25,528 nt of DNA from Candidatus Thorarchaeota archaeon. Its GTDB lineage: Archaea > Asgardarchaeota > Thorarchaeia > Thorarchaeales > Thorarchaeaceae. Each line of letters opens with the position of its first letter. Position 1 is the first letter of the stretch. The position numbers and the translations under genes are program-made. The stretch lies in the NCBI GenBank assembly GCA_016840855.1, contig JAEORO010000036.1, positions 1 through 25,528 of the forward strand, written 5' to 3'. Under the pieces are notes generated by a model, which was not told the origin of the DNA, did no database searches, and saw only the letters and a program-made list of their open reading frames with translations. Below, piece after piece: positions 6,520 to 25,042 of this stretch.

Positions 6520-6912
6520 TCATGGCGTCACAGTGGAAGTAGTTTCATACTTGCTTGGGCATGATGTCAGAATCTCTGTGGCGTGAATAAGAGCTGCTGA
6601 TTGCAATGTACCAATTGCGACGATATCCTGACCATCTATCAAGTTGGGTGTTTCCCCAAGAATCAATACAGTTATTGTATGATTTTCCCCTTCCATTACC
6701 AGTGTTACATTTTCAACTGTCGTGCTGAGTGATCCTGAAAGGTAAGTGCCTTTCACCTGTATTGTTCGACCCATGTATGAGTTTGGGTCTTCGACGACTT
6801 GATCTACACTTAGATACGGATCAACAAAGAGATTCAACATAGCAAATGACACGAATCCTATAGTCGCAACCAAGATGATTGCTACAGCCGCCATTCGTGT
6901 TCTCTTGTTCAC
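6520..6912 (-). CDS. ccmE: Cytochrome c maturation heme chaperone CcmE, CxxxY (System I*) type
   Basis: N-terminal TM, an OB-fold-like body and C-terminal ATEILTSCPSKY. It is the last gene of the ccm cluster. Confidence 0.93.
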   Translation of the reverse strand: MNKRTRMAAVAIILVATIGFVSFAMLNLFVDPYLSVDQVVEDPNSYMGRTIQVKGTYLSGSLSTTVENVTLVMEGENHTITVLILGETPNLIDGQDIVAIGTLQSAALIHATEILTSCPSKYETTSTVTP

Positions 6913-6914
6913 TT

Positions 6915-7055
6915 TTAGTTATCTCCTTCGACTTGCGATTCCACAATCTTCAGTTGTTTTTCAATTCCCATCATTCTTAATAGGAGATACAATAGGAATG
7001 CGAAGATTCCACCCCAAAAGATTACGGCTACTACAAATAGTTCAACTTGCTGCAT
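6915..7055 (-). CDS. ccmD: CcmD-like small membrane protein (46 aa)
   Basis: Below the ORF-track cutoff. Hand translation gives MQQVELFVVAVIFWGGIFAFLLYLLLRMMGIEKQLKIVESQVEGDN*, a single TM plus a charged helical tail. GAGGAG lies 8 nt upstream, and the ORF fills the ccmC-ccmE gap with 4-nt and 2-nt spacings. Confidence 0.85.
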   Translation of the reverse strand: MQQVELFVVAVIFWGGIFAFLLYLLLRMMGIEKQLKIVESQVEGDN

Positions 7056-7059
7056 TTCA

Positions 7060-7734
7060 TTAACTCCTCGACATTCTTATTCTCATCAATTTTTCGTGCG
7101 CTGCATCAACCCTGTATGTCAAGTCTATCAAAATCAAAGCTATCATGGTAACGGCAATCATGGATACCATCAATGTCATAGCATGTTCGATTTCCATCTG
7201 AAGCCCTGTTGGCTCAATGACAATTGGGTGTAATGTTTCCCAGATTCGAATTGAAAGATAGCTCAATAATACCATCGGGAATGCTATGATTCCAAAGATG
7301 GAACCAAATTGAGCTTTGGACTCTCGGTCGCTGACAGAAGCTCGATATGCAAGAATACAGGCATATGCTATCCAAAGGATGAGAGTGGTTGTTTCACGTG
7401 GATCCCAATTCCATGGAGTTCCCCAAGCTGCATCCGCCCACATCATTCCTGTGAGGAGTGTAATTGTCGTGAACAATAGTCCTAGTTTGAGTGCTGCGGC
7501 TCCTAAAATGTCATATTTCAGATCTCCCCGCAACAAATACATAGCACCGCACACAAGTGTTCCACCAAAAGCTCCATAGGCAACAAGTGCTGGGGCAACA
7601 TGTTGAAAGAAAATCCGAATATATTCTAGGAGTTCTGCCTCTGGTGGTGCAAAGATCCATGTCATATAGACATATAGAAAGGATACTGCAGCAGTGATTC
7701 CAAGAAACATTATTCGGTTTCTGCTCAAGTTCAT
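7060..7734 (-). CDS. ccmC: Heme exporter / heme-handling protein CcmC
   Basis: WWD domain MWADAAWGTPWNWDPRET, flanking His ligands (FFQHVAPA, TLHP) and six TM segments. Confidence 0.95.
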   Translation of the reverse strand: MNLSRNRIMFLGITAAVSFLYVYMTWIFAPPEAELLEYIRIFFQHVAPALVAYGAFGGTLVCGAMYLLRGDLKYDILGAAALKLGLLFTTITLLTGMMWADAAWGTPWNWDPRETTTLILWIAYACILAYRASVSDRESKAQFGSIFGIIAFPMVLLSYLSIRIWETLHPIVIEPTGLQMEIEHAMTLMVSMIAVTMIALILIDLTYRVDAAHEKLMRIRMSRS

Positions 7735-7757
7735 TCAACTCGAATTGCTGGCCAATT

Positions 7758-7770
7758 TTGCAATTTGCAA
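7758..7770. promoter_or_regulatory. Candidate operator TTRCA-N3-TGYAA (exact)
   Basis: TTGCA-ATT-TGCAA in the 63-nt ccmB-ccmC gap, about 23 nt upstream of the ccmC start. Confidence 0.5.
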
Positions 7771-7797
7771 TATGAAGGTTGCGTTAATGACGAAGAT

Positions 7798-8478
7798 TCA
7801 TGGTGAAAGTGCAAAATGGAAGACTGATGCTGAAAGTGTCAACATAGCTATCAGATGGGCAAGAAGTATTTCAAAAATTAACACAACTGGAATTAGACCT
7901 GGTCCTAAAACAATAATTTTTGTTATCTCTATTAGCAGCATCAAACCAGATGTTGCTGTTGGAAAATATACAAGGGGAAACACAGTAGCTTTTGACTCTG
8001 ATGGCATTGTGAGAGCTGATGCCATCGAACCAACAGCTGCTAGATCTAGTGTTCCAACTAGAAATGTCGCAATAGCTAGGGGAAAGTCATTGATGATTGA
8101 GAAACCAAATAGAACGGATATAATTGGGACCAAGAAGATCTCTACTAATCCCATTAATAGAAATCCATAGATCACTTTTCCCAGATAAACAGACCATGCT
8201 GGTATTGGTGCTGTAGCTAAACCTCGCAATGTGCCAGTTTCAGACTCGGAGAGAAAAATTGGAGCAAATCCAAACATACCTGTAAAGAATATTATAACCC
8301 ACAGCAGAGCACTACCAATTTCCTCTGAAACTGAACCTCCCGTCACTACTGCAAAGGAAAATGCAAGTACTGCGATAAGGGCAAAAAGGAACATCGAGAA
8401 CGCTTCAAACTTTTTACGAAATTGTGTAATGATGTCTTTTTTCGCAATTGCCAATGCAGCGCTCAAGCCAGATGTCAT
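7798..8478 (-). CDS. ccmB: Heme exporter permease CcmB
   Basis: AIAKKD near the N-terminus, ALLW, FxxExExGTLxGL, and YLGK. Six TMs, positioned between ccmA and ccmC. Confidence 0.92.
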   Translation of the reverse strand: MTSGLSAALAIAKKDIITQFRKKFEAFSMFLFALIAVLAFSFAVVTGGSVSEEIGSALLWVIIFFTGMFGFAPIFLSESETGTLRGLATAPIPAWSVYLGKVIYGFLLMGLVEIFLVPIISVLFGFSIINDFPLAIATFLVGTLDLAAVGSMASALTMPSESKATVFPLVYFPTATSGLMLLIEITKIIVLGPGLIPVVLIFEILLAHLIAMLTLSASVFHFALSP

Positions 8479-8487
8479 TCACTCACC

Positions 8488-9177
8488 TCAGAGGGTCTGA
8501 TCAAATTCAGAGATTGGACCCTGGCCTACCACCACACCCTTTCTAAGTGTCACAAATTCATCACATAATGCTGCTCCAAGAGCTAGATTGTGTGTTGTTA
8601 CAATTGTTGTTCGCAAATTCCTAAACTCGTTTAGATAATTCCAAAAGTCTTCAGTTGTATCTTTATCAAGTCCACTAAAAGGCTCATCCAAAAGTAGCAA
8701 TTCTGGATTGTGTATCAAACTTCGGACTATATCGAGTCTCTTTTTGAGCCCTGTTGAGAGGTTCTTAACGGGTTCTTGAAGCCATGACTGAATACCAAAC
8801 CTTGGTGCTAAACCATCTAGCTGAGATTTGAAGAAATCAGATGACAGTCCGAATAATTTGGAGTAGAACCAAAGGTTCTCAAATCCAGTGAGTTCCTCAT
8901 AAAGAAGCGGCTTGTCACCAACCAAACCTATACGTTTCTTCACTTCCTCAGATTCTTCTTGAGGGTCAAAACCCATTACAGAAATCTTTCCTCCATGGGG
9001 CCGAAGCAGGGTCGATATTACGCGCATAAGTGTGGTCTTTCCTGCACCATTCGAGCCAAAAAGCCCTTGAATGCCATTCTTCGAAAAACTAAGCGATACT
9101 TCCCTTAGCGCTACTCTATAACCATACCGTCTTGTGAGTTCAAAAGTTTCAATGGCTTTTGACAATGGGAAGTTCAC
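8488..9177 (-). CDS. ccmA: Heme exporter ABC ATPase CcmA
   Basis: Walker A GSNGAGKTT, signature LSTG, Walker B LLLLDEP and H-loop TTHN. Adjacent to ccmB. Confidence 0.9.
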   Translation of the reverse strand: MNFPLSKAIETFELTRRYGYRVALREVSLSFSKNGIQGLFGSNGAGKTTLMRVISTLLRPHGGKISVMGFDPQEESEEVKKRIGLVGDKPLLYEELTGFENLWFYSKLFGLSSDFFKSQLDGLAPRFGIQSWLQEPVKNLSTGLKKRLDIVRSLIHNPELLLLDEPFSGLDKDTTEDFWNYLNEFRNLRTTIVTTHNLALGAALCDEFVTLRKGVVVGQGPISEFDQTL

Positions 9178-9278: not shown

Positions 9279-10496
9279 TCAACCTAGTCCCATCAGACTG
9301 ATGAATAAATCTTCGATATTGAGAACTTTGATCTTGACTCCTCTTTTCTTGACTGCATCTAAGAAATTGAGCTTACAGAATACACATGATGAAACGATTG
9401 TTGTAGCGCCAGTTTCAAGTGCCTGATTCAGTCTTCGTGCAGCAACATTAACTGCATTTTCCCCAAATCCTGCTTTGAATCCTCCTCCAGCTCCACAACA
9501 GACAGAGTTTTGTCTATTCCTTTCCATCTCAACAAACTCGAGACCAGGAATGCTCTTCAAAATCTCTCGTGGAGCTTCGAACACTCCGACATGACGACCA
9601 AGATGGCAAGGATCGTGATATGTTACAGTCTCAGGATAACTTCCTTTCCATTCAAGTTCACCCTTCTTCAACTTTAGGGCTAGAAACTGAGTAAGATGCT
9701 GTGTGGAGAATGGTAAAATTCCATGTCGTTCTCTGTAGAAGCGAGGCCAATCGAGTGTCGTTGTTCTATAGCAGCCTGAACATGAGAAAATGACATGTTC
9801 AATACCTCGGGTCTTCATCTGTTCTACATTGTGGAGTATGAACTTTTCCGCCTCAAGAGTACCAATGTAATCCTTCTCTCCATCTTCAGACTCTTCATAT
9901 ACTGGTCGAGTCACTTGTCCTGTCCTAATCAACGGACTACAACAACAGTATTCATCAGCACCAAGAATCTGTGGCTCTATTCCGAAGTAATTTAGCATGC
10001 GCAATGTTGCATCTGCGATTTCAGGTCTCTTATATGATGCTGTGCAGCCAACAAAATAGCCCCACTCTGAATCATCTGAGATTCGTGTGTCAGGTTTGAC
10101 CCACGCACCTCGTTCTTTTGGGTCTTCTCCAAATACATTATTGCGCTTCAGCGCCAAATCTCCCATTACGTGAAGTTTTCCATAGGGTCCTTTCCCTAAT
10201 TGTACAAGTTTCTTTCTTACATCCTCTATTATTCTCACATATGGAACCTTGATAGGACAACGTTCTACACATTGCTCGCAGGTACTGCAGGCATAAACTG
10301 CTCTGACAAAACTTTCATCCACAGGAAGGTTCTTTTCAACATATGAACGCAAGAGGCGAAGTCTCCCACCGGCAAAAAATGCCTCAGATTGAAACTCCTC
10401 GTAGCTAGTACATGTCCATCTACAGGTTGAGCAATTACTACAAAGGACTATCTGATCAGGATCGACATCAAGTTCTGAAGTGAAAAATCTCTTCAT
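9279..10496 (-). CDS. GlcF/HdrD-like Fe-S protein (2x[4Fe-4S] plus two CCG domains)
   Basis: CSNCSTCRWTC and CSTCEQCVERCP; GC..YCCC..CSGC and HDPC..CCG..CVFC. The start overlaps the upstream stop (TAATG). Confidence 0.92.
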   Translation of the reverse strand: MKRFFTSELDVDPDQIVLCSNCSTCRWTCTSYEEFQSEAFFAGGRLRLLRSYVEKNLPVDESFVRAVYACSTCEQCVERCPIKVPYVRIIEDVRKKLVQLGKGPYGKLHVMGDLALKRNNVFGEDPKERGAWVKPDTRISDDSEWGYFVGCTASYKRPEIADATLRMLNYFGIEPQILGADEYCCCSPLIRTGQVTRPVYEESEDGEKDYIGTLEAEKFILHNVEQMKTRGIEHVIFSCSGCYRTTTLDWPRFYRERHGILPFSTQHLTQFLALKLKKGELEWKGSYPETVTYHDPCHLGRHVGVFEAPREILKSIPGLEFVEMERNRQNSVCCGAGGGFKAGFGENAVNVAARRLNQALETGATTIVSSCVFCKLNFLDAVKKRGVKIKVLNIEDLFISLMGLG

Positions 10497-11974
10497 TAGA
10501 TATTCCCCTCCTGATATGTGATTGGAATTTGGAGTATGTTCTTGGCTCGTCGTAATATTGCTTGCAATCTTCGAAAATGACCGTTCATTGTGAACATTAG
10601 ATTCAGCCGCGTATATGACATGTTACAATGAGTCAACTTGTCTGGGTTCATTATCCCTTTTGGATCCCATTTCTCTCTAAGTTTTATGTACCGTCTATAA
10701 TCCTCTGGCTGATATCGTTTAATATATACTGTGTTCTGGAGACCTAGTGTGTACAAAGTTCCTCCTAGTCGATACATCATCTTTACTAACTTATGCAGCA
10801 TTGACTTTCCAGCCATGAAGTGCATCCAATGTCTATGGTCTGAAGGAGCAAAAGCACAAAGTCTTGCTTTTGATGATCCACCAAGAACTAGATAAAAGCA
10901 CGAGTTAATTTTGAAGTTGTGTGCGATTTTATACATCCTTTTCACAATGGGCTCAACATACTCCAATGGAACCCAAAAGTTCTGCATTGATAATGTTGGG
11001 ACTTCTAATTTTAGTTTCATTTCAACAATATACCTATCATCCCAGTTTTTCTGATAATAGTCCTGCTGCATTTCATGACCACCAGCGACCTCGAAGATTC
11101 CCCGTGCGGTCTTTATTGATTCATTTACCTCATCAGCAGATCCACTATATGTAACCATGATAAAGAACAGACCTTTTGTGTTAGGGGGAAGGCCTCCCTG
11201 TATTCGCCACTCATATTCAAGATCAGTGAGTCGTAGATAGATAGGTTGTGTTTTGGTTTTACTAAGTCGAGTGAGAACATCTATTGCCTTTCCTAGCTCA
11301 TCAAATGCAAACATCAGTCCCTCTGTTGATTCTGGAATTGGAATTACTTTCAACTTGATTGTGGTGACAACTCCTGCAATTCCAGAAGTCCCATAAAAGG
11401 GCAGCATGTCTTCACCTGTCACAGTTTCAATTGTGCCATTAGGTCTCACCACTTCCATTTCCAGTATATTCTCAATCATTGAACCATATTTTGGAGTACC
11501 GATACCAGCCTTACCACCAATTGCTAACCATCCCGCAAGTGTGGACGCAACACTACTCTGCGGTGCTACTGGAGTTGTAAGTCCATGTTTTCTCAACTCA
11601 TTATTCAGAATCTCCCAAACTGCTCCTGCTTCAACTATTGTCCACCCTTTTTCTTTGTTAACTTCTTTTATTTTATCCATTCGTTTAGTATCAATCACAA
11701 CGCCGCCTCTGGTGGGGCTTGCTGAACCATAATAGCATGTACCTCCACCTCTTGGGATGGTTGGAATATTATTGTTTGAAGCGAAATTCATGATGGCTGA
11801 AACTTGATCATTAGTTTCTGGCCAAGCCACAAAATCAGCTAGCCATTTCTTTTTCCATCTATAGTGATAATAGGGAATGCCTGTTGTATCTCCACTTGCA
11901 GAAAGACGTTCTGCCATAAGATTGCTGACCCACGAAACCTCTGATAAATCTCTGATTGACTCTGTCGCATTCAA
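10496..11974 (-). CDS. FAD-binding oxidoreductase of VAO/PCMH (GlcD-like) fold, subtype A
   Basis: PRGGGT, STLAGWLAIGG, GTSGIAGVVT and C-terminal WDPKGIMNP. Paralog of 22351-23820 (shared YHYRWK motif). Confidence 0.9.
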   Translation of the reverse strand: MNATESIRDLSEVSWVSNLMAERLSASGDTTGIPYYHYRWKKKWLADFVAWPETNDQVSAIMNFASNNNIPTIPRGGGTCYYGSASPTRGGVVIDTKRMDKIKEVNKEKGWTIVEAGAVWEILNNELRKHGLTTPVAPQSSVASTLAGWLAIGGKAGIGTPKYGSMIENILEMEVVRPNGTIETVTGEDMLPFYGTSGIAGVVTTIKLKVIPIPESTEGLMFAFDELGKAIDVLTRLSKTKTQPIYLRLTDLEYEWRIQGGLPPNTKGLFFIMVTYSGSADEVNESIKTARGIFEVAGGHEMQQDYYQKNWDDRYIVEMKLKLEVPTLSMQNFWVPLEYVEPIVKRMYKIAHNFKINSCFYLVLGGSSKARLCAFAPSDHRHWMHFMAGKSMLHKLVKMMYRLGGTLYTLGLQNTVYIKRYQPEDYRRYIKLREKWDPKGIMNPDKLTHCNMSYTRLNLMFTMNGHFRRLQAILRRAKNILQIPITYQEGNI

Positions 11975-11986: not shown

Positions 11987-12397
11987 CTAAGCAATGTACT
12001 GAATGTATCCCATAGCAAAGACTATGGTCCAACATATCGCAGCTACTAATCCTGGAATATGTGTCCTTATGCCTGAGATTCCAGTTAGGAATGCACCAAT
12101 TCCAGAAATGTAACCTAACGTTCCCAAGCCAATATGAATCAAATGAAATAAGTCCGCTCCACCAGCACCGAGAAGTGTGCCAGTAAGAGGTAAAATAGTC
12201 ACAATATTGATTGTTGTTAGTAATAGTGATAGACCTGCACATAGACCATGGGCAAATGTGTACTTTTCCTTTGAAACATAGTATAATGCTGTCCCAATAT
12301 AGAGAAGTATTAGGGCTGGAAGTCCCAAGATCACAGTCATGTGTAAATTGTTAAACTGTAAAACTTGGAATTGATTGGTTGATAGATAGGATGTCAT
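11987..12397 (-). CDS. Four-TM membrane protein with conserved His, putative cytochrome b-like (DUF420/b561-like)
   Basis: Four hydrophobic helices with His in NLHMT, FAHGL and FHLIH. It aligns by eye with the C-terminal domain of 23831-25042. AGGAGG RBS. Confidence 0.65.
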   Translation of the reverse strand: MTSYLSTNQFQVLQFNNLHMTVILGLPALILLYIGTALYYVSKEKYTFAHGLCAGLSLLLTTINIVTILPLTGTLLGAGGADLFHLIHIGLGTLGYISGIGAFLTGISGIRTHIPGLVAAICWTIVFAMGYIQYIA

Positions 12398-12605: not shown

Positions 12606-14327
12606 TTAATGGAAGATTTTTCTAAAGAACCTCAGGAATGGTGTTCCTATTGAAAGCACAACCGTAATTGGTACCAGATTCGCAAATTCAGACACCACAA
12701 ATCCTGCAAATAGTCCTACTATGAACCAGACCAAAAAACTAGCCATATCGTTCACGAATATCCAAGGGACATATGCTTGAATTATCGATGGTACCAAAAT
12801 ACCTGCTAACCAAACCACAATTGGTGCCACTAATCCAGCTATGAGCATAATTAGTATGTTCAGTCGAACACTAAGAACCAATGGTCCTGGGAAGACTTTG
12901 TGTGAATTGAGAAATCCATTCTTGTCTGTTTTCCGTTTGAGATTAGACATTTTTGTGTAGTTCTCTTTTCCATAGAAACTTCTAGAGTGAGCAGCATTCC
13001 ACATGCCTATTGAATAGGCTCTACCACCATGTTTCAAACCAAGATTGATTACATCCAATGAGCGATACCAACCCATGAGGAAAGAAATTCTTCGTCGCTC
13101 ATCATCAGGGAACCATGTTAGGACAGCTACTTCACCTTTGTCCGTAATAGCTCCTTCAAGTGCGAAATCTTCCGATTTGAAGTGTTTGTTCATATGATTG
13201 ATATATTCATCCAAGTTTTCTAGCGGCACATAGACCTCTGAAGGAGCAAGACTGGGCCCAAGTCGTTTGATTCGCATTGGGTAGAAACGTTCACTCCATT
13301 CATGTTCCGCAACCTCATCGGATTCAAGAGATCCACTGTATCTACTCACGATATGTTTGAGCTTCTCAATTTCTGTAGCAATCTCATCTTCAGTTCCTTC
13401 GAATGCACATGATATGATGAATTCTCCTGTTGTTGGTGGTGCTTGATTCACTTCTTTCAACATCTTGTAGAAATTATCAGTGATGAAGTGCAAATAGAAT
13501 GGTCTTGTGGCTTCAAGGATATCCTGAAGTGCTCCAACCATTAGACTTTGGCTTCGAAAAGATGATGTGGTGGGTTTTATGTCTCTCAATGGTATTATTT
13601 TCAAGACAACTTTAGTAATAATCCCAAGAGCGCCATTGCTATCTACAAATAGTTGCGTTGAGTCAGGATTGTAAGTTATTCTATCACTAATTTCTCCGTA
13701 GAAGGAATCTCCGCCAATGAAATCATTTCTCTCTTTGTCAACCACGAATTTTTCTTCAGAAGTTTCCGTTGTTCGAATGATTTCACCATCTGGTAGAACA
13801 ACTTCCAGATCTACAACTTGTTCGGCAATTCCTCCATATTTAGTGCTACCAATGCCACTACCACCAGCAGCCACCCAGCCACCAACGGTGCTTGATGGAG
13901 CACTTGATGGATAGGCTGCAACAGTCAATCCCTCATCTTCAAGTTCTTCTATCAACTTCCCCCAAATTATACCCGAACCTACTTCTACAGTCATATTTTC
14001 TCTGTCAATGTGATGAATCTGATTTAATCTGGTCATCTCAAGAACAAGTCCGCCTCTTGTGGGCAGAGCACCTCCGTAACCACTCGTGCCATGTCCTCTA
14101 GGAACTACGGGGATGTGTTCCTGCTTGCAATATGTTAGAAGATTGGATACAACCTCAGTAGTTGATGGTTGCGCCACAGCTTCCGCATTCGGATTCAAAA
14201 CATCATTGACAATTCCGGGTAAAGCAGCAATATCATGAGAATATAGTTTGGTCATATATTCTTCTGAAGAGAAATAGTCTTCACCTGCTATATCTGCCAA
14301 TTTTTGCATATGCTTCTTCGCAATCAT
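12606..14327 (-). CDS. FAD-binding oxidoreductase of VAO/PCMH fold with a C-terminal membrane anchor, subtype B
   Basis: PRGHGTSGYGG, YPSSAPSSTVGGW and RFYPMRIKRLGPSL, plus a hydrophobic C-terminal extension of about 90 aa. Paralog of 16835-18556. Confidence 0.9.
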   Translation of the reverse strand: MIAKKHMQKLADIAGEDYFSSEEYMTKLYSHDIAALPGIVNDVLNPNAEAVAQPSTTEVVSNLLTYCKQEHIPVVPRGHGTSGYGGALPTRGGLVLEMTRLNQIHHIDRENMTVEVGSGIIWGKLIEELEDEGLTVAAYPSSAPSSTVGGWVAAGGSGIGSTKYGGIAEQVVDLEVVLPDGEIIRTTETSEEKFVVDKERNDFIGGDSFYGEISDRITYNPDSTQLFVDSNGALGIITKVVLKIIPLRDIKPTTSSFRSQSLMVGALQDILEATRPFYLHFITDNFYKMLKEVNQAPPTTGEFIISCAFEGTEDEIATEIEKLKHIVSRYSGSLESDEVAEHEWSERFYPMRIKRLGPSLAPSEVYVPLENLDEYINHMNKHFKSEDFALEGAITDKGEVAVLTWFPDDERRRISFLMGWYRSLDVINLGLKHGGRAYSIGMWNAAHSRSFYGKENYTKMSNLKRKTDKNGFLNSHKVFPGPLVLSVRLNILIMLIAGLVAPIVVWLAGILVPSIIQAYVPWIFVNDMASFLVWFIVGLFAGFVVSEFANLVPITVVLSIGTPFLRFFRKIFH

Positions 14328-14339: not shown

Positions 14340-15518
14340 CTAGAGATCCAATGCTTCAGCAACTATTTGTGACAAATCTTTGAATTGTATTTTTGACTGG
14401 CGATTTTCTATACCATCATTCAATGACATTGTACAAGATGGACATTCACTCGAAAGTATCGTGGCTCCTGTCTTCTCTGCTTCTTCAATACGTCTTGCTG
14501 ATACCCTCACAGATGCAACAGGATATGTGCCCTTCAAAAGCCCGCCGCCTCCACAGCAACGTGCTTTGTTACGGTTATGTTTCATCTCCTTCAGCTTAAG
14601 CCCTGGTATAGCTTTCAAGACCTCACGTGCTGGATTGTAGATGTTCTGATGTCTACCTAATTCACAAGGATCGTGCCATACTACTTCATGAGGGTATTCT
14701 TTCCTGAATTTGATCTTCCCATCCCTGAGTAATCTCAGGACAAACTCAGAGAATGGCAGGAATTCAAGACCCTCTACAACTTCCTTTCCGAGAAGGTGTG
14801 GATATTCCTCTGCAAAAGCCCGGTGACATCCTGGGCAGTTGAAGACAACTGTTTTGACACCAAGAGTCTTGAGAGCCTTAATATTATGCATGGCTAATTC
14901 TTTGCCCTTATCAAAGCCGCCTGCAACAAAGTATGGATTTCCACAACAGAATTCTTCGTCTCCAAGAACAGTGAAATCAATTCCTGCAGCGTTCATGACT
15001 TTGATTGTGTTTTCACCCATATGTGCTAAGGTTCCCTTGAAAGAGATATTACATCCAGCAAAATAAGCAACCTCTGCTTGAATACCAATCCTATCTTCAA
15101 CTAAATCATCAACCATATCTGTCCAGAGGGTTCTGTCAGCCTGATCCATCTCCATGATGTTCTGAGTTTGCTGAAGCGAGTCGTCAATGTAATTCACTAT
15201 CTCTGGCCATTGTTCGAGCTTACCAATTTCCTGTCGAGTAAGTTGCCAAAACCTAAGAAGAGGAATATTCGTTTGGCAAATCTCTTGGCAAGCTCCACAC
15301 AATGTGCAATAGAAGATTCTACTTGCAAAGTCACTTGGTATTGGCTTGTTTTCCTTTATGAGTGACTTGAGCTGGTATAATTTTCCTCTAGGTGACTGAG
15401 AGTCCCAAAGTGTATCTAGATATGCTGGGCAGACAAATGTGCAGAATCCACATCTAGCGCACACTGTTGGCTCAATATCGAGCCCTTCAAGTTTGAGGGA
15501 TTCGAATAGATTTGTCAT
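14340..15518 (-). CDS. GlcF/HdrD-like Fe-S protein (2x[4Fe-4S] plus two CCG domains)
   Basis: CARCGFCTFVCP, SPRGK and CTLCGACQEIC; GC..CCG..CPGC and HDPC..CCGGGG..CPSC. Confidence 0.93.
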   Translation of the reverse strand: MTNLFESLKLEGLDIEPTVCARCGFCTFVCPAYLDTLWDSQSPRGKLYQLKSLIKENKPIPSDFASRIFYCTLCGACQEICQTNIPLLRFWQLTRQEIGKLEQWPEIVNYIDDSLQQTQNIMEMDQADRTLWTDMVDDLVEDRIGIQAEVAYFAGCNISFKGTLAHMGENTIKVMNAAGIDFTVLGDEEFCCGNPYFVAGGFDKGKELAMHNIKALKTLGVKTVVFNCPGCHRAFAEEYPHLLGKEVVEGLEFLPFSEFVLRLLRDGKIKFRKEYPHEVVWHDPCELGRHQNIYNPAREVLKAIPGLKLKEMKHNRNKARCCGGGGLLKGTYPVASVRVSARRIEEAEKTGATILSSECPSCTMSLNDGIENRQSKIQFKDLSQIVAEALDL

Positions 15519-18556: not shown

Positions 18557-19746
18557 TGATCTCCTTCACCTCCTAAATCCTTAGGTAACAGAGAATCAGC
18601 TACAATCTCCGTGATATCTTGCACCTGCATTTCATATCCCGTAGTGAATTTTGCTAAGTCAAATGCAAGTATACAACGTGGGCATTCAGTGATTATTCGT
18701 GAGGCTGGAGTAACTGTTGCGTCTCTGAGACGCATCTCAGCTATCCTAGATGAGAGGAGTGGGTCAACAACATTTAACAAACCATGTGCTCCACAACACC
18801 TTGTACTCTGTCTAGAGGGGTTCATCTCAACATTATAGACTCCAGGGATATCCTCGATGACCTCTCTCGGTTCTTCAGTTGCCTTTAATACTCTCGCGGC
18901 TATGCAGGGGTCATGAAATGTTACAGTAACCATTGGCTGCTCTTCGAATTTGAGTCGTCCCTCTCGACTAAGACGGTTGATAAATTGAGACGCAGTCAAA
19001 AGTTCAATACTGTTCTCTTCTTTGAGATATTTACTATACTCTGACCAAGTCTGTATGCATGATGGACAGCTGAACACAACAGTTTCTACGCCAAGATCGC
19101 GTATAATACTTAGATTCTTTTCAGCCATTTCATTGATGCCCTCAAAATTACCCGCCCAGCCTAGAGGAGCACCACAACAAATTTCCTTGTCCGCTAGTAG
19201 TGTATAGTCAATGTTTGCATAATCCATTATCTTTACCATTGATTTCGCAACATTATGTAGCTGCGATTTGAGTGAAACATTGCAACCAAGAAAATAAGCT
19301 ACCTTAGCTGGTTTGAGGATATGATCCTTGACAGTTTCTTCTATTTCTTCCATCCAAAGGAGTCTATCTGCTGCTCCCATCCACATAATGTCACCCTTGG
19401 ATTTGAGGGAATCTAAGACGAATTTTGCAGGCTCGGGCAATAATCCTCGTTGTCTCACCTCCGCGCGTGTGATTTCCCAGAATCTATCAAGACTAATCCC
19501 AGTTGTACAGACCGAAGTGCAGTGTTCGCAAAGATTGCATAGAAAAATCTTATTCGCGAAATCTTCACCAAACTCGCCTTCGCCTTCAATGATTGATTTC
19601 ACAATGTGAAGCTTTCCTCTTGGACCGTAAGACTCCCATCTGAGGTCTCGAAATACTGGACAAACTAGAGTGCAGTTACCACAAGAGGCACAAACATACG
19701 GTTCATCTTCTTGTCTGTACCTTTCTAGAAAGTCCATTTTGGTCAT
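18553..19746 (-). CDS. GlcF/HdrD-like Fe-S protein (2x[4Fe-4S] plus two CCG domains)
   Basis: CASCGNCTLVCP, GPRGK and CNLCEHCTSVC; GC..CCG..CPSC and HDPC..CCG..CPRC. Start moved to ATG 19746 because GGTGA lies at 19758-19754. Confidence 0.92.
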   Translation of the reverse strand: MTKMDFLERYRQEDEPYVCASCGNCTLVCPVFRDLRWESYGPRGKLHIVKSIIEGEGEFGEDFANKIFLCNLCEHCTSVCTTGISLDRFWEITRAEVRQRGLLPEPAKFVLDSLKSKGDIMWMGAADRLLWMEEIEETVKDHILKPAKVAYFLGCNVSLKSQLHNVAKSMVKIMDYANIDYTLLADKEICCGAPLGWAGNFEGINEMAEKNLSIIRDLGVETVVFSCPSCIQTWSEYSKYLKEENSIELLTASQFINRLSREGRLKFEEQPMVTVTFHDPCIAARVLKATEEPREVIEDIPGVYNVEMNPSRQSTRCCGAHGLLNVVDPLLSSRIAEMRLRDATVTPASRIITECPRCILAFDLAKFTTGYEMQVQDITEIVADSLLPKDLGGEGDQ

Positions 19747-19783
19747 CGAGATTTCACCATGAAGTGATGACAATTAACGAAAT

Positions 19784-19852: not shown

Positions 19853-21196
19853 CTACTTCAAGTCTTCAATCATTTCACCAGCACATGCAATACCTGACTT
19901 CGAAGATGCTTCCATGGATGCATAGTACATGCCACAGTTTGCATATTCCCCTGCTACATAAAGCCCTTCGACTCCAGTACGGTTAGTTGTAAGACGCTGG
20001 TCCATTATTCCAGGTGGTTGTTTGAGGATTGATTTCCAAATCTTCCAGCTCTTTTTCCAGGTGACTTTATCTTTAACACCAGGAATAAGAATCTCAAGTT
20101 CGTCAAGAATTGCTTCTGTTGCCTCCTCATCACTCATCTTAAGGAGCTCCTTGTCGATACCTGTGACTGTTAGAAGAGACTCTCCAATGGGTGCCAGTAC
20201 TCCTGACACTCTCTTCGCTTCAGCAACAATATTGATCTTTCTTTCTGGTACAAATGCACCGACATTGAAATCTAAGACTCGTGATTTCAAACCAAAGTAT
20301 CCAACGGTGCTAGGTGTATACTCAAACTTGGATGTTTTTTCGGTGAATTCTTTTGGCAACTCACTCATTCTAACGAAGTTTGGCAGGAGATCGATTGGAG
20401 TAGACAGGACAACAGCATCCGTATCCATATGTTTGCTCTCTCCATCTTGTTCATAGTCAACCCCAACCACTTTTCCATCTTCAATGATTACCTGCTTTAC
20501 AGCACAGTTGACCTGTGGTTCAACTCCAAAGTTACGGGCTTGAAGCATGAGTGTATATGCGACACTGCCTAATCCACCTCTCTCAGGATACATAGCACTG
20601 AATCCATCTTCATATGCGAATCTAAGGTGTTCGGAATAGAGGTATTGTCCAGCAGACACCTCATCTGGATTCATGAATGTAACAGTCTTGATTAGTGGCT
20701 CATAGAACTCATTTTGGATGGATTCTGCGATTTTCTTATCCTCTGCATACTCTGTAAAGGTCATCTTATCTAGTTCTTTGAATTCTTCTTTGGATCTCTT
20801 GATGTTCTCTTGAACAAGCAATCCAAGCTTAGCTCTGTCAGCTGCAGGCAATAGACCAAACTTTGCCAACTCAATAGCTGATTTTCGGATAATATGCCTT
20901 TCACCATCTTTGAGCCAGACTGCACCTTCCCCGACAGTGGTCATTTTAACTCCACTCCTTTCTAGAATCGGAATTAGTGATTTGAATCCGCCAACGAAGA
21001 AGTGTAATCCTTGGTCAAAGACATAGCCTGATTCCGTGTATGACCTGGCACGACCACCAACAGTCTTTTCTTTCTCAAGAATTGTGCATCGGGCTTTGAG
21101 ACCCTTTAATTCAAGTGCACAGCTGAATCCAGCTATACCACCGCCAACAATGACAACACGTGTCCCTTTTTCTTTACTCATAAGTGATATCTCCAC
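19853..21196 (-). CDS. FAD-dependent oxidoreductase of the amine oxidase / phytoene desaturase / HpnE superfamily
   Basis: Rossmann motif VVIVGGGIAG, then E....VGGRARS, DQGLHFF and C-terminal GLYVAGEY...ASMEASSKSG. The start may be ATG 21181. Confidence 0.82.
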   Translation of the reverse strand: MEISLMSKEKGTRVVIVGGGIAGFSCALELKGLKARCTILEKEKTVGGRARSYTESGYVFDQGLHFFVGGFKSLIPILERSGVKMTTVGEGAVWLKDGERHIIRKSAIELAKFGLLPAADRAKLGLLVQENIKRSKEEFKELDKMTFTEYAEDKKIAESIQNEFYEPLIKTVTFMNPDEVSAGQYLYSEHLRFAYEDGFSAMYPERGGLGSVAYTLMLQARNFGVEPQVNCAVKQVIIEDGKVVGVDYEQDGESKHMDTDAVVLSTPIDLLPNFVRMSELPKEFTEKTSKFEYTPSTVGYFGLKSRVLDFNVGAFVPERKINIVAEAKRVSGVLAPIGESLLTVTGIDKELLKMSDEEATEAILDELEILIPGVKDKVTWKKSWKIWKSILKQPPGIMDQRLTTNRTGVEGLYVAGEYANCGMYYASMEASSKSGIACAGEMIEDLK

Positions 21197-21216
21197 TTTT
21201 CTCTTGTTAATTCTTC

Positions 21217-22341
21217 CTACTCCTCCACCTGAGACGGTCGAGCTTTATCAAGGATTAGCTCATCAAGCTGGATTACTTCCAGATTTGTTTCCCTAGCATT
21301 GTAACTCAGATTCTTATAACATGACACACAGGTCGTAATGATTCCGTCTACGCCTAGCTCCTCTGCTTCAGCAACGCGTCGTCGTCCAACAGACTCAGAA
21401 AGGTCTGGATCTAAAACCGTAAGAAAGCCACCACAACAGTTTGAGTTTTCACGATTGTTCTTCATCTCCACCAATTCAAGACCAGGAACTGCTTGAATTA
21501 TTTCACGTGGGGGCTCATAAATTCCAAGAGCTCTTCCCAAGTGACAGCTGTCGTGGAATGTGTATTTACCTTCTAGACCCTCAAAAGTTAGAACGCCATT
21601 TCGTACCATGTCAGCTAAAACTTCCACTGTGTGGAGTATCTTAATGTCGAACTCAGGGATAATATGCGGATAGTGTTCTGCTAACGTACCATAACATCCT
21701 CCACAACCAGTGACTATGTGATCCACACCTGCTTTCTTGAACATTTCATAGTTCTTTCGTACCACTTCTGCAAATCCTTCGTCGTCACCAGCCCAATAAT
21801 TGAACAAGCCACAACATACTTCCTTTGGAACATATCCTGCATTGACTTTCAATTTGTGGAGCATATCGACCACTGTTTCAGGTTGGTCCGGATACCAGAA
21901 TGAGCCCATGCATCCAGAGAAGATTGCTGTATTTGATTCAGGAGGGAGTTCCAAATCTTCAGCCCAAACAGTTCTATCTTCAGACTCGTATCCGATAAAT
22001 GGAGTCCCTTCCTTCTCAATCCAATCGAGAACTTTCTGAAGCGGCTCTGACATTTCTGCTCCTGTCTTTAGAAGCTGACCTTTTGCATCATGCCATATGT
22101 CTGTCACAGGAACTCCTGCAGGGCAGATTGCCTCACATCGTCTACAATCAGCACAATACAGCCGCTGTAGAAGCTCAACTGGTGGATTTCTCATCTTCGT
22201 AGCGTATGCTCGAAGAGCTCGAAGTTTTCCTCCAGGACTATCAAGCTCTGATTTTAGCTCAATATACATTGGACAAGTATCTCTACAGTAATTACAAGAA
22301 CCACAGTTGCGTAGTACTTCTGCTAGGTTATCTATATTCAT
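21217..22341 (-). CDS. GlcF/HdrD-like Fe-S protein (2x[4Fe-4S] plus two CCG domains)
   Basis: CGSCNYCRDTCP and CADCRRCEAICP; GC..CCG..CGGC and HDSC..CCGG..CVSC. Confidence 0.93.
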   Translation of the reverse strand: MNIDNLAEVLRNCGSCNYCRDTCPMYIELKSELDSPGGKLRALRAYATKMRNPPVELLQRLYCADCRRCEAICPAGVPVTDIWHDAKGQLLKTGAEMSEPLQKVLDWIEKEGTPFIGYESEDRTVWAEDLELPPESNTAIFSGCMGSFWYPDQPETVVDMLHKLKVNAGYVPKEVCCGLFNYWAGDDEGFAEVVRKNYEMFKKAGVDHIVTGCGGCYGTLAEHYPHIIPEFDIKILHTVEVLADMVRNGVLTFEGLEGKYTFHDSCHLGRALGIYEPPREIIQAVPGLELVEMKNNRENSNCCGGFLTVLDPDLSESVGRRRVAEAEELGVDGIITTCVSCYKNLSYNARETNLEVIQLDELILDKARPSQVEE

Positions 22342-22350
22342 TTTTACACC

Positions 22351-23820
22351 TCACTTACCCACATATCTTGATAGCCTCCGGAATGCGGCGGCTAATGCAA
22401 ATAGTAAATCTATCCTTCTGAAAGAAGTCAAACAAGTTGTTACTCTATCTGGATTCATGATTCCCTCAGGGTCCCACTTGGCTTTGGCTTCCTTCATTTC
22501 TACTAATCGATCTGGATATGCACGTGCCATATAGATTGAATTTTGAAGTCCAATCGTATATGGAACTCCTCCAGATTTGATAGCTTTTTTCATCATCTTA
22601 TGCAAGATTCCCTTGCTTGAAATGAACTTCAGGTATTGAGCAGCATCTATCATTGCCATTAGCTCAAGTCGCATGGCATCTGGTGTGCCCAGCATGCCAA
22701 ACCACAAAGCTGGAATTTTGTGAGATCTGCGGTATGACTCATATGCAGCGAGCATCTCATGCACTTTCTCTGTAGGCACCCACAGTTCTTGGAACATCAG
22801 AGTTTCAGTATGTTCCTTTGGATTGAATTCAGCATCGTATCTGAGTTCCCATTCTTTTTCAGAGAATTCCTCTCCGAGAAAGACTCCTGAATTGTCACCA
22901 GCAATGACATTGAGATCTTCAGATGGTATATCGGAGGGTGTGTCTATATAGGTCACAGTCAGAACATATTTCCCATCTTCAAGTGGATTGCTGTACTTTA
23001 GAAGTTCATCGTCTGCAATCTTTAGATAAATTGGTTTCTTCTCTAGCTCTGCTGTTGCTCTCATTGCATTGCAGAGTCCTTCCAATTCCCTGAATCCATA
23101 GCTGAATGTTTTGTATCCTTTGGGTTTCTCATGCACTCGAAGTGTAATCTCAAAAATGATTCCAAGTATGCCATACGAGTGCAAGAAAAGGTCAATCTCA
23201 TCATTCTCGATGGTATTTTTCGTTCCATCTCCTCCGATGACTGAGAGTGAGAGAGTGTGATCTCTGAGTGACCCATAATATGGAGTTCCTATACCTCCTC
23301 TACCCCCACATGCTATCCAGCCACCTATAACTGCTGACTTCGCACTTGACGGGTAGATTCCAAATGTCAACCCATGTTTCTCTAGTTCGTTCTCGAGTCT
23401 ATCGAAGGTGACTCCTGGCTCAACACGAACAAACATTGACTTTTTGTTGATCTCTAGGATTTTATTCATGGGTTTGATATCGAGTGATATTCCACCGCGA
23501 GTTGGACTAGATGAGCTCATGCAACTTGAAGCTCCACCACGAGGTACAACAGGTATTTTGTGCTGACGGGCAATCTTCAGTACCTCTTCTATCTCATTGA
23601 CATTCTCTACTCTGACTACATAATCCGCGAGGTATTTTGCTTTCCACCGATAGTGATATTGAGGAAGAACAGCAGGGTCACCACTATACACTACTCGTTC
23701 TAGTTCGGAATCTGAAACTCTCTCCTCACCAACAATCTCGACTAGCTTGTCAAGCACAGTTGCTTCGGTTTTCACGATTGGTTGTGGGTCAGGTACATTT
23801 CCTAAATCTGTTTCAGTCAT
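22351..23820 (-). CDS. FAD-binding oxidoreductase of VAO/PCMH (GlcD-like) fold, subtype A
   Basis: PRGGASS, YPSSAKSAVIGGW, SYGILGII and WDPEGIMNP. Shares YHYRWK with 10496-11974. Confidence 0.9.
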   Translation of the reverse strand: MTETDLGNVPDPQPIVKTEATVLDKLVEIVGEERVSDSELERVVYSGDPAVLPQYHYRWKAKYLADYVVRVENVNEIEEVLKIARQHKIPVVPRGGASSCMSSSSPTRGGISLDIKPMNKILEINKKSMFVRVEPGVTFDRLENELEKHGLTFGIYPSSAKSAVIGGWIACGGRGGIGTPYYGSLRDHTLSLSVIGGDGTKNTIENDEIDLFLHSYGILGIIFEITLRVHEKPKGYKTFSYGFRELEGLCNAMRATAELEKKPIYLKIADDELLKYSNPLEDGKYVLTVTYIDTPSDIPSEDLNVIAGDNSGVFLGEEFSEKEWELRYDAEFNPKEHTETLMFQELWVPTEKVHEMLAAYESYRRSHKIPALWFGMLGTPDAMRLELMAMIDAAQYLKFISSKGILHKMMKKAIKSGGVPYTIGLQNSIYMARAYPDRLVEMKEAKAKWDPEGIMNPDRVTTCLTSFRRIDLLFALAAAFRRLSRYVGK

Positions 23821-23830
23821 CTAAACCACC

Positions 23831-25042
23831 TCACGGAACAAAGACTTCTCCAAGATAGACTCCCATTATTCCAAGTATTGTCCACAAAACTACTGCAGGA
23901 AGACCAAGATTGCATGTTTTCCACCCACCAAGATGTGTCAAAAGCGCGAGGGAACCAAGAATCATGCTAATTATTCCAAGCCAAACATGCCATGCGTGCA
24001 TGAATAACAGCATGTTACTAATGTCTATCAGGAATGCAGGATTCATGACACTCCAGGTGCTGGCAGGCTCCATGAATAGGCTCAATACATTAATCGTCGT
24101 GAGAATGTACGCCAAACCAAGCATGATGCCATGGATTCTGGTGAACCTTTCTTCATCATAATACTCAAGAGCTGTTCCCAGATAAGCTAGAACAAGTGCT
24201 GGTGCTCCAAGTAACCAACCATAGTGAAATTGTGGTAGCTCTATAGGTTCGACGGGAATGTTTCCAACGATATATGATAATGTGGGGCTGATGCTCTCGG
24301 TCCCAGAGGCGTCCATTGCCACAATCCGCCAGAGAACTTCTTGATTATTCGCTAACCCTGGGATTGTTCCAGAATACACACCGACTTCAGTTGTTTCAGT
24401 CATACTGACATTTGTCCAAGTTGCACCATTATTGGTGCTATACTGAAGTCTGACATAGGTTATTGTTTCGGTGGAAGTGACAGAAACTGTGACTGTGAAC
24501 TCTTCATTTGCTCGTGGGACTTCTGGAGTAGTTGAAGGAGACCCAATTGATGGGCCAGGACCTGCTTGAACTACATCGACGGTTATTGATGAACTAATCG
24601 AATAGGGAGTATGCTGAGCAGCAAAAATTGTCAGTGTATAGGTTCCAGCAAATGCAGGAGCTGTGATGTTATAGAATGTATGAATTGCGTTATCGGCCAT
24701 GTCAAGATCTAGTGTGGGATCATTATCTGTAACTAGTCCTGGGTCATCTACATTCATTGGCACTTCTATTGTGAACTCATCATTATTGGCGACTTGACTG
24801 GGAATTCTTAGTACGAATACATCCTGTGAGAGACCAGCCGCAGTGACTTCAACCTGAAAGGTTTCTGATGGGGCCACCTCAATTGATGATATTGTACTTA
24901 TCGAAAGGCCTGTGGAATCGTTATGGCAGGTAGTTGAACAATTACTTTCGGCACTACTATTCGCGAGAACATTTCCAGCTGCAACCATGATGAGGATTAC
25001 TGAAGCAAAAACAACTAGTGCGACTTTGAACTTGTGCCTCAT
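23831..25042 (-). CDS. Exported CX3CH / beta-rich domains fused to a four-TM His-containing membrane domain (putative cytochrome c-cytochrome b fusion)
   Basis: Signal peptide, NSSAESNCSTTCH, two beta-rich domains (the second with LQYSTNNGATW), then four TMs with FHYG, RIHG and MHAWH. GGTGAT RBS. Confidence 0.7.
   Translation of the reverse strand: MRHKFKVALVVFASVILIMVAAGNVLANSSAESNCSTTCHNDSTGLSISTISSIEVAPSETFQVEVTAAGLSQDVFVLRIPSQVANNDEFTIEVPMNVDDPGLVTDNDPTLDLDMADNAIHTFYNITAPAFAGTYTLTIFAAQHTPYSISSSITVDVVQAGPGPSIGSPSTTPEVPRANEEFTVTVSVTSTETITYVRLQYSTNNGATWTNVSMTETTEVGVYSGTIPGLANNQEVLWRIVAMDASGTESISPTLSYIVGNIPVEPIELPQFHYGWLLGAPALVLAYLGTALEYYDEERFTRIHGIMLGLAYILTTINVLSLFMEPASTWSVMNPAFLIDISNMLLFMHAWHVWLGIISMILGSLALLTHLGGWKTCNLGLPAVVLWTILGIMGVYLGEVFVP

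Follow-up and report, generated by a model that had tools for sequence, protein, structure and literature searches.

Several described electron-transfer systems combine an iron-sulfur (Fe-S) protein of the CCG type with a flavoprotein or with a membrane haem or quinone site. GlcDEF, GlpABC and EtfD are quinone reductases. The TmcABCD, HmcA-F and DsrMKJOP complexes of sulfate reducers bring together, in one gene cluster each, a cytoplasmic CCG Fe-S protein, a membrane haem protein and a cytochrome c on the outer face. In GlcDEF, Dld/LDHD and YdiJ-type enzymes, a flavoprotein with the domains FAD_binding_4 and FAD-oxidase_C is paired or fused with a GlcF-type CCG protein. EtfD of mycobacteria (PDB 9OJN) and HdrDE share a further arrangement: an HdrD-like protein, which has two cubane and two CCG-type clusters and is seated on a membrane haem, receives electrons from a flavoprotein. 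According to the available part of the structural report, the chain in EtfD starts from a flavoprotein and leads over two CCG clusters and two cubanes to haem b and menaquinone, with gaps of 4-9 Å (PMC13083937). OcwA of Thermincola potens (PDB 6I5B) is presented, in the portion of its report at hand, as a cell-surface terminal reductase akin to NrfA, c554 and MccA (PMC6703420). For cytochrome c maturation (Ccm) in archaea, the accessible text of PMC9084895 describes a CcmE with a CXXXY motif, calls ccmD universally absent and states that the ccm genes are not operonic. Here we describe a block of 18 consecutive minus-strand genes, at positions 6520-25042 of contig C137 of a Thorarchaeota metagenome-assembled genome (MAG; 3.36 Mb, 259 contigs, 92% complete), and compare it with these systems. 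Two lineage-specific proteins of this genome have best matches labelled Candidatus Thorarchaeota, which makes the organism a Thor-type Asgard archaeon. The window is this whole contig stretch of 25,528 nucleotides (nt).

We read the block as the central part of a membrane electron-transfer island that is specific to the Thor-type lineage of Asgard archaea, and we give this reading about as much credence as its denial. The genes were named in transcription order g01-g13, followed by ccmA, ccmB, ccmC, an open reading frame (ORF) of 46 amino acids (aa) and ccmE (Table 1). By Pfam, they encode four VAO-fold flavoproteins, four HdrD/GlcF-type CCG Fe-S proteins and one desaturase-like flavoprotein; in addition there are three His-bearing domains with four transmembrane (TM) helices (g01 C-terminus, g11 and g08), two exported C(Xn)CH proteins (g01 and g07) and a ccmABC-(D-like)-E set. 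An earlier note on this DNA had drawn up the same list of parts, and every item on it was present as an intact ORF. Its statement that the genes lie mostly 0-20 nt apart also held, since 12 of the 17 junctions were no longer than 20 nt. Two of these were overlaps (g05/g06 by 4 nt and g12/g13 by 1 nt), which point to translational coupling and were counted in favor of our reading. The remaining five junctions measured 63, 79, 101, 197 and 208 nt. TATA-like and oligo-T elements were sought in these five larger gaps and gave nothing decisive; internal promoters within the block are possible. Of 20 sequencing runs in which this DNA occurs, from marine-sediment communities, none was listed as RNA.

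In the scheme that we propose, four paralogous modules would each consist of a metal-free cytoplasmic VAO-fold flavoprotein and an HdrD/EtfD-type Fe-S protein with two cubane and two CCG-type clusters. Membrane attachment of these pairs would come from a TM tail on the flavoprotein itself (g06 and g10), or the pairs would sit next to a 4-TM protein (g01 C-terminus, g08 and g11). A cytoplasmic donor would reduce the flavin adenine dinucleotide (FAD), and electrons would pass to the CCG and cubane clusters of the partner, as in EtfD, and from there to a 4-TM haem and/or a prenylquinone. They would then reach the outer haem c of the immunoglobulin (Ig)-fold domains (g01 N-terminus and g07), an OcwA-like multihaem cytochrome and finally an external acceptor, with the g01 and g07 cytochromes being matured on the outer face by the adjacent streamlined Ccm. 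EtfD is the best solved precedent for how one such module could act. The parts, their linkage and conservation, the haem c motif and the conserved His are established from the sequences; what we infer within this scheme is that haem b is bound, which subunits touch, that flow is outward, and what gives and takes the electrons. Whether the flavin/Fe-S pairs and the outer haem c exchange electrons across the membrane is in our judgement evenly poised; if such transfer occurs, outward flow is more likely than inward flow.

Conservation was examined by searching a profile of g07 homologues against 400 genomes of the phylum, fetching 20-kb stretches around the matches and comparing their ORFs with the window proteins by phmmer. 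The order g01-g10 was identical in all nine Thor loci fetched, which came from five genera (g1, g3, g6, g9 and g12), and such a recurrence is far beyond chance. The desaturase-like gene g04 was kept at the same place in all nine. A full ccmABC-small ORF-E set followed the block directly in five loci and was cut by the end of the stretch or contig in two others (L033 and L038), while in G372 the ccm set lay behind three isoprenoid genes. The synteny comparison across relatives that the earlier note had put forward as a check thus came out on its side, with gene order kept and the ccm genes co-conserved. Within the 86 genomes of the family, strong matches to the cytochrome-domain family were found in 41, the 4-TM family in 38 (own genome included) and full-length CcmF (690-710 aa) in 37; cytochrome domain and CcmF occurred together in 33. 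All three were confined to the same five genera, and none was found in the other eleven genera of the family. These genomes are kin and incomplete, and the counts describe co-occurrence and do not test it; the pattern is that of one co-inherited system.

Across the 400 genomes of the phylum, the 4-TM family was found in 83, namely in 37 of 85 genomes of the Thor family (f1) plus our own, 7 of 14 in f21, 37 of 135 in f22 and 1 of 4 in f23, with none elsewhere. Its neighbors in other Asgard archaea were similar in kind. In one family, a 302-aa protein made of a CNCH ectodomain and the 4-TM domain adjoins a single 905-aa polypeptide with FAD_binding_4, Fer4 and CCG domains. In a second arrangement a 303-aa ectodomain-4TM form adjoins separate FAD and CCG genes, and in a third a 371-aa form with a single 'CH' adjoins a Fer4 protein, a CCG protein and ccmAB/CE. 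This recurring adjacency, together with the fusion of flavoprotein and Fe-S protein, lends independent support to a functional triad of ecto-haem/4-TM, Fe-S and flavin components.

The proposed outer end of the chain consists of g01 and g07, which had been described previously as atypical surface c-type cytochromes, and the homologue alignments bear this out. The motifs CSTTCH (g01) and CGSAGCH (g07) sit right behind an N-terminal hydrophobic helix (hydropathy 2.58 and 2.73, respectively). A C(X2-6)CH motif was kept in 111 of 120 g01 homologues, within their first 90 residues, and in 90 of 92 g07 homologues, and the commonest forms among them were canonical CXXCH motifs (CSTCH in 18, CSSCH in 14). 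C35, C39 and H40 of g01 were invariant in 60 aligned sequences, as were C36, C41 and H42 of g07 in 34, and in both alignments the length of the spacer varied. Because the haem-binding atoms are conserved while the spacer length is free, and because an export signal and adjacent Ccm genes accompany them, it is very probable that g01 and g07 form a new Ig-fold family of c-type cytochromes and that they bind haem covalently. The g07 profile also matched the g01 N-terminus (E-value (E) 2.4e-14) and larger paralogues, and on this profile evidence the g01 N-terminus, g07 and the larger paralogues are assigned to one domain family. Neither protein matched a Pfam family over the cut-off or an NCBIfam family. 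The AlphaFold2 (AF2) model of g01 (pLDDT 86.1) comprised a signal helix at residues 3-23, an unstructured segment with the motif, two beta-sandwiches and four TM helices; Foldseek with this model returned only generic tandem Ig/FN3 chains, so that no described cytochrome c fold was matched and no family was excluded. M214 and Y201 of g01 were kept in the alignment of 60 homologues.

The distant relatives of the ecto-domain/4-TM family (P0216-P0269; loci L041, L043 and L044) have the motif reduced to xCH, CxCH, HxxCH or a lone His. Many of these forms have lost or exchanged the first Cys, which would leave room for non-covalent haem. A single-Cys form of the ecto-domain/4-TM protein adjoins ccm genes in family f22.

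The Ccm genes of the block belong to System I in its archaeal streamlined form, in that CcmA, B, C, E and F are encoded, CcmE has CXXXY and CcmC has the tryptophan-rich motif. The ccmC gene of the block is the sole such gene found in its assembly. CcmF lies about 4 kb upstream of g01 in relatives of the same genus and just past ccmE in others, and contig C228 of our genome opens with the last 50 codons of CcmF, the only CcmF fragment assembled there. A system lacking CcmF was considered for this genome and rejected, given the position of CcmF next to the operon in relatives and this fragment at the start of C228. Orthologues of the small ORF, 45-46 aa long, lie between ccmC and ccmE in five loci (L034, L035, L037, L040 and L046), and in two more (L062 and L067) they were called longer. 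None of five orthologues matched the Pfam CcmD model, even at E up to 10; from its place and size, this ORF may be a divergent or analogous CcmD. In Methanosarcina acetivorans, ccmABCEF has been shown to suffice (PMC9084895). As far as the accessible text on it goes, the two systems agree in the CXXXY motif of CcmE, in having CcmF in the lineage and in that no CcmH or CcmI was seen here; they differ in that ccmABC-E form one operon here, with a conserved small TM ORF in the place of ccmD. A novel family linked to ccm genes in FESNov was considered as a match and set aside, as it concerns class HRBIN17 and not Thorarchaeia.

The proposed inner end of the chain is made up of the flavoproteins and their Fe-S partners. 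All four flavoproteins (g02, g06, g10 and g12) carried FAD_binding_4 and FAD-oxidase_C (PF01565 E 2.9e-40 to 8.9e-34) and were 26-34% identical to one another. The earlier note had set them beside GlcDEF-type enzymes. They scored 131.9-162.2 bits with the glcD model TIGR00387, against a cut-off of 567.9. Moreover, in an HMMER alignment of g10 with LDHD of the mouse (8jdc), A, V and A-Y stand where the mouse enzyme has the two His and the Glu-His of its metal-binding site, and at the second metal site all paralogues read GGxxY[ST]xG. In a paralogue fused to NuoB the metal site is replaced as well. Because the metal-site residues are replaced in all four and the glcD scores are far under the cut-off, we set these proteins apart from the lactate and glycolate dehydrogenases; judged by sequence, they are not such enzymes in the known sense, and a GlcD-type reading was given up. 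Beyond the replaced metal site, the block differs from GlcDEF, Dld and LDHD in that two of the copies have TM tails.

Each of the Fe-S partners (g03, g05, g09 and g13) contained two ferredoxin-type 4Fe-4S motifs (Fer4_8) and two CCG stretches (PF02754 E 4.1e-28 to 1.2e-34), and 10 orthologues of g03 were 74-95% identical. In g13 the first of the two CCG motifs reads CCC-S, while g03, g05 and g09 keep CCG twice. The best solved relative of g09 was EtfD (9ojn_A, E 9.7e-35, residues 68-391 on 409-746), matched along the entire Fe-S region. EtfD, however, includes a haem b domain of five helices and passes its electrons finally to menaquinone, whereas the Fe-S protein of the block is soluble, the separate 4-TM proteins are of other families, the donor is of the VAO fold and not an ETF, and an outer haem c is added. 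Matches of g05, g09 and g13 to the TmcB, HmcF and DsrK models reached E 1e-12 to 1e-31, but the scores of the CCG subunits were far under the cut-offs (TmcB 61.8-108.7 bits against 735, HmcF 43.5-78.3 against 750 and DsrK 46.2-67.1 against 400). Compared with the Tmc, Hmc and Dsr complexes, the outer protein is a predicted Ig-fold monohaem protein instead of a multihaem c3, the membrane part is not NarI-like, and a flavoprotein is added; Pfam found no multihaem c3 or NarI-type protein in the operon.

Two alternatives to our reading concern these pairs. In the part of PMC9723677 available to us, up to 9-13 Dld genes per MAG are reported for Sif- and Jordarchaeia, most of them beside HdrD, and are read as lactate oxidation coupled to CoM-S-S-CoB reduction. 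By the same logic the pairs of the block would be cytoplasmic D-lactate:heterodisulfide oxidoreductases, with the cytochromes and Ccm as mere neighbors. Further flavoprotein and CCG paralogues, some of them adjacent, do occur outside the island in our genome (contigs C175, C257, C248 and C104, with FAD/CCG pairs on C175 and C257); this expansion of the pair family across the genome agrees with the abundance of Dld-HdrD pairs described in Sif- and Jordarchaeia. Nevertheless we consider this explanation very improbable, as the lactate dehydrogenase metal site is missing in all four flavoproteins, two of them are membrane-anchored, their genes keep one order with those of the cytochromes and 4-TM proteins in nine of nine loci, and the pairing recurs in other Asgard families. 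The second alternative keeps the chain and reverses it, with electrons flowing inward from an outside donor or quinol through haem c, the 4-TM protein, the CCG clusters and the flavin, which would reduce a disulfide or an enoate in the cytoplasm, after the manner of thiol:fumarate reductase. The best NCBIfam models for g03, g09 and g13 include TfrB, a subunit of thiol:fumarate reductase (154-192 bits, under the cut-off of 385), and HdrB/HdrD-type models, and the available part of PMC13083937 gives the CCG clusters as the disulfide-reducing site in Hdr. All of these scores, however, are far under the cut-offs, the closest solved relative of the neighboring multihaem protein is a terminal reductase, and Thor-type archaea are read in PMC9723677, in the part at hand, as organic-matter fermenters short of electron sinks. 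We regard inward flow as improbable.

For the outward chain that we favor, the step through the membrane would depend on the 4-TM proteins. In the TM domain of g01, H273, H304, H349, H352 and H370 were invariant in 60 homologues, and so were the segments YYDEE (294-298) and WKTCN (374-378). Four of these His were kept across g11 (H19, H50, H85 and H88) and the distant forms. Inference from hydropathy and the model would place H273, H349 and H352 close to the outer membrane face and H304 and H370 close to the inner one, with the two invariant loops facing the cytoplasm. This layout in g01 and g11 is that expected of a two-haem transmembrane bundle, the putative binding of haem b being deduced from the conserved His only. 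The AF2 model of g11 (pLDDT 86.6) was a four-helix bundle, and a fold search with VIA-align returned only generic four-helix bundles with a top Z of 11.6, which is under the tool's noise level for helical bundles and excludes no family. Neither the g01 C-terminal domain nor g11 had a Pfam family, and their profile found only 59 clusters among 1.84 billion protein representatives, none tied to a named family. An ESM Atlas match of the g01 TM domain to a cluster bearing DUF420 was dropped, as its score of 0.80 equals the tool's chance level.

The third 4-TM protein, g08, was unrelated to the g01 C-terminal domain and g11 by hhalign (probability 0.3%). DUF2231 was matched at E<=0.01 by 4 of 10 g08 orthologues, and H4, H9, H11 and H48 were invariant in all 10. 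The previous description of these domains as cytochrome b-like anchors stands as far as conserved His in 4-TM domains is concerned, while the domains fall into two unrelated families and a link to NarI/HdrE-type cytochromes b was not detectable. As read from the sequences, 'cytochrome b-like anchor' is a fair hypothesis for the g01 C-terminal domain and g11 and a weak one for g08. When g03 was modelled as a complex with residues 262-403 of g01, its TM domain, and with two haems and two 4Fe-4S clusters, the prediction scored 0.00 and was evidence neither way.

The 18-gene block is part of an island of about 40 kb, which is cut here by contig ends. A multihaem cytochrome gene starts divergently from g01 at the end of the window, and only this start lies within it. 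The 463-aa multihaem protein of the relative G355 has seven CXXCH motifs, Pfam C554/C552 and TM anchors at both ends. Its best solved relative was OcwA (6i5b, E 2.9e-10), a distant and partial match over residues 164-384, and the anchors at both ends set the archaeal protein apart from OcwA. Upstream of g01, G355 encodes this cytochrome, a 723-aa anchored protein, CcmF, a GGR-family reductase, a polyprenyl synthase, a MenA-like prenyltransferase, two PNPOx-like proteins, a fifth CCG protein, a 1481-aa Ig-repeat protein with one N-terminal CXXCH and a flavoprotein-NuoB fusion. In our genome, C228:1-8552 carries the CcmF tail, GGR-like, polyprenyl synthase and MenA-like genes and further genes as in G355, and C207:47-11097 carries an Ig-repeat cytochrome of 776 aa and the flavoprotein-NuoB fusion, after which comes a complex-I-like operon with nuoA, J, K, C, D, H, I and L-like genes and without nuoEFG. 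PNPOx-like genes and the gene of the fifth CCG protein are also on these two contigs. The same set of island genes surrounds the operon in shuffled order in G372, G317, G329 and G320; beyond our own contigs, the wider island was found in four other genera. The NuoB-fused paralogue suggests that membrane complexes of these archaea may commonly use the flavoprotein/Fe-S unit as their point of electron entry.

Given an island with a MenA-like prenyltransferase and a complex-I-like operon, a step through a membrane quinone would seem as likely as a direct wire. Taken further, there might be no direct wire at all: the flavoprotein/Fe-S modules would be quinone reductases with the 4-TM proteins as anchors that form the quinone site, and the cytochromes and the multihaem protein would be a separate quinol-oxidising branch. 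Together with a flavoprotein-NuoB complex-I-like pump, these would make up an ordinary-style anaerobic respiratory chain with unusual parts. The MenA-like prenyltransferase (129.2 bits, cut-off 102.15), polyprenyl synthase and GGR-family reductase in the island (own genus, G372 and G317) speak for such a chain, as do the fusion of a flavoprotein paralogue to the NuoB of an operon without NuoEFG, the end of EtfD in haem b and menaquinone, and the lack of a full His set in g08 and in the TM tails. A pathway to the quinone head group, however, was not found in our genome (MqnA, MqnC and MenB-level matches), and a quinol oxidase of the NapC/NrfH/CymA or bc type was not found in the stretches examined, no search aimed at these families having been made. 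The fusion of the haem c domain to the 4-TM domain in g01 and in the relatives of about 300 aa also argues for a direct haem-to-haem step. We therefore hold a chain without any direct wire to be unlikely, though a serious contender.

Several observations weigh against the electron-transfer island as we read it, with its chain from cytoplasmic flavin to outer haem c. The 4-TM families resembled no known haem protein in Pfam, fold and profile searches; in g08 the conserved His are confined to two helices, and among 10 orthologues no His was invariant in the TM tails of g06 and g10. The flavoproteins are without the catalytic metal site of their family. No invariant Met or second His was found in 34 aligned g07 sequences that could act as a distal ligand. 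The 776-aa and 1481-aa paralogues, in which numerous Ig-like repeats and a Thr/Pro linker separate the CXXCH domain from a C-terminal anchor, would hold a single haem domain far from the membrane, and one haem cannot wire that distance. As for the unity of the block, the gaps of 197 and 208 nt may split its transcription, and module D (g11-g13) stood beside the block in four of the relatives' nine loci and was missing there in five. G320, a relative assembled as a single contig of 3.16 Mb (G320:C1; loci L033, L066 and L067), has the g01-g13 operon and ccmABC-small ORF-E with no CcmF match anywhere. No multihaem gene lies within 20 kb of its operon; G320 represents either a CcmF-independent state or a loss in progress.

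The supply of cofactors is a further point of this kind. HemB was absent from our genome and from 85 of the 86 family genomes, the sole family HemB being on a small contig of an 80%-complete MAG, and HemC was not found in our genome. AhbD-like matches were considered as a sign of haem synthesis and rejected, as they were generic radical-SAM/SPASM proteins. The lineage thus looks unable to make haem or tetrapyrroles, as far as its gene content indicates, yet it keeps cytochromes and Ccm. With haem synthesis genes missing, the chain would therefore need scavenged haem; if the cytochromes are real, haem must be taken up from outside, and probably the quinone head group too, for which the genes named above were likewise missing from the 92%-complete genome. 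Haemophilus influenzae is a known haem auxotroph with ccm genes. The same absence of HemB would suit a quite different role, in which Ig-fold haem-binding domains on stalks of graded length (193, 403, 776 and 1481 aa) relay scavenged haem to the membrane, in the manner of the NEAT domains of the Isd system. The graded lengths with the haem domain at the distal end fit this role, and the xCH, HxxCH or lone His left in the distant relatives is compatible with non-covalent haem. In the Thor families, however, both Cys are invariant and stand beside Ccm, whose product is a fixed covalent haem, and haem capture leaves no role for four flavoprotein/Fe-S pairs. We find it hard to credit.

Table 1. 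Features of the 18-gene block, its flanks and related surface proteins. Positions are those of the window unless a locus or contig is given.
Feature	Position	Strand	Description and evidence
g01	23831..25042	-	Candidate exported Ig-fold monohaem c-type cytochrome fused to 4-TM His-bearing domain, 403 aa; CSTTCH at residue 35
g02	22351..23820	-	VAO-fold flavoprotein A, 489 aa, amphipathic C-terminus; PF01565 E 8.9e-34, PF02913 E 1.7e-09; glcD 131.9 bits
g03	21217..22341	-	HdrD/GlcF/EtfD-type Fe-S protein A; CCG E 1.2e-34, two CCG stretches, Fer4_8
g04	19853..21196	-	Amine-oxidase/HpnE/phytoene-desaturase-like flavoprotein, 447 aa; PF01593 (Amino_oxidase) E 2.8e-36; HpnE 114.5 bits, cut-off 283
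g05	18553..19773	-	CCG Fe-S protein B; CCG E 2e-30, Fer4_8 E 1.1e-10
g06	16835..18556	-	VAO-fold flavoprotein B, 573 aa, C-terminal TM tail; PF01565 E 7e-34; TM segments 490-508, 545-563
g07	16056..16637	-	Candidate exported Ig-fold monohaem c-type cytochrome, 193 aa, Thr/Pro linker, C-terminal TM anchor; CGSAGCH at residue 36
g08	15534..16037	-	4-TM protein, N-terminal HPxFVHFH; weak DUF2231 likeness (22.2 bits, under cut-off 26.4)
g09	14340..15518	-	CCG Fe-S protein C; CCG E 9.6e-34
g10	12606..14327	-	VAO-fold flavoprotein C, 573 aa, C-terminal TM tail; PF01565 E 2.9e-40
g11	11987..12397	-	Stand-alone 4-TM protein, 136 aa, paralogue of g01 C-terminal domain; 38% identity to g01 C-terminus
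g12	10496..11974	-	VAO-fold flavoprotein D, 492 aa; PF01565 E 4.3e-34
g13	9279..10496	-	CCG Fe-S protein D; CCG E 4.1e-28; TfrB 191.7 bits, cut-off 385
ccmA	8488..9177	-	ccmA-like ABC ATPase; ABC_tran E 2.6e-27; ccmA model 101.2 bits, under cut-off 131.6; named from position by ccmB
ccmB	7798..8478	-	PF03379 73.2 bits, cut-off 24.9
ccmC	7060..7734	-	Tryptophan-rich motif WGTPWNWDPRE; PF01578 97.1 bits, cut-off 29.9; ccmC model E 2.2e-27
46-aa ORF	6915..7055	-	ccmD-like single-TM ORF; named from place and size only
ccmE	6520..6912	-	Archaeal-type haem site CPSKY (CXXXY); PF03100 46.7 bits, cut-off 24.6
Multihaem cytochrome gene, first 41 codons	25404..25526	+	OcwA/NrfA-like, divergent from g01, cut by contig end; tblastn 85% identity to residues 9-56 of 463-aa G355 protein
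FMN_red-type flavin reductase	5879-6514	+	Faces ccmE
MutS	within 267-6514		Full five-domain bacterial type, 866 aa; flank of block
Ribulose-phosphate 3-epimerase, GT87-like membrane glycosyltransferase, 210-aa exported protein	within 267-6514		Flank of block
1481-aa Ig-repeat surface protein	L058:13358-17803		One N-terminal g07-type CXXCH domain, 35 N-glycosylation sequons
776-aa Ig-repeat surface protein	own C207:47-2377		One N-terminal g07-type CXXCH domain, 14 N-glycosylation sequons

Below position 5640 the minus-strand run extends into unrelated genes (MutS, GT87 and Rpe).

A full-text literature search, with subscription journals outside its coverage, found no paper linking these parts in Thorarchaeota or describing the two new protein families, and it agreed with the earlier note, to which no characterised complex of this composition was known. 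Already in print, as far as the available parts of the sources go, are Asgard Dld-like genes beside HdrD (PMC9723677), the streamlined archaeal Ccm (PMC9084895), EtfD (PMC13083937) and OcwA (PMC6703420). The system is a known principle built from largely new parts, and it is real, conserved and, as far as searched, unpublished. Two of its protein families would be new to haem biochemistry, namely an Ig-fold cytochrome c with a spacer of 2-6 residues and a His-rich 4-TM family of 59 clusters.

Models of Thor- and Loki-type Asgards generally make them fermenters or acetogens, which dispose of electrons in the form of hydrogen or formate. In the accessible portion of PMC9723677, cytochromes are not mentioned for these archaea, and that of PMC6478937 states that cytochromes for direct transfer are lacking in the sister group Helarchaeota. 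This fermenter picture would change with a conserved membrane island built on cytochromes, which occurs in five Thor genera and has relatives in three further Asgard families; such an island would give a testable route for electron export or partner-dependent respiration. It is possible, although we doubt it somewhat, that Thor-type Asgards carry out a surface respiration, exporting electrons to outside acceptors or partner cells while depending on their neighbors for haem and probably for the quinone head group. The chain would consist of new families, namely Ig-fold monohaem cytochromes, a 4-TM haem protein family of their own, and metal-free VAO flavoproteins joined to HdrD-type Fe-S proteins and even to NuoB. 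The island would also offer a natural case of Ccm operating in a haem auxotroph. If such a surface respiration is real, a relative of the eukaryotic host lineage would by its very metabolism depend on other cells, and it would have a means of handing over electrons directly, as syntrophy models of eukaryote origins require.

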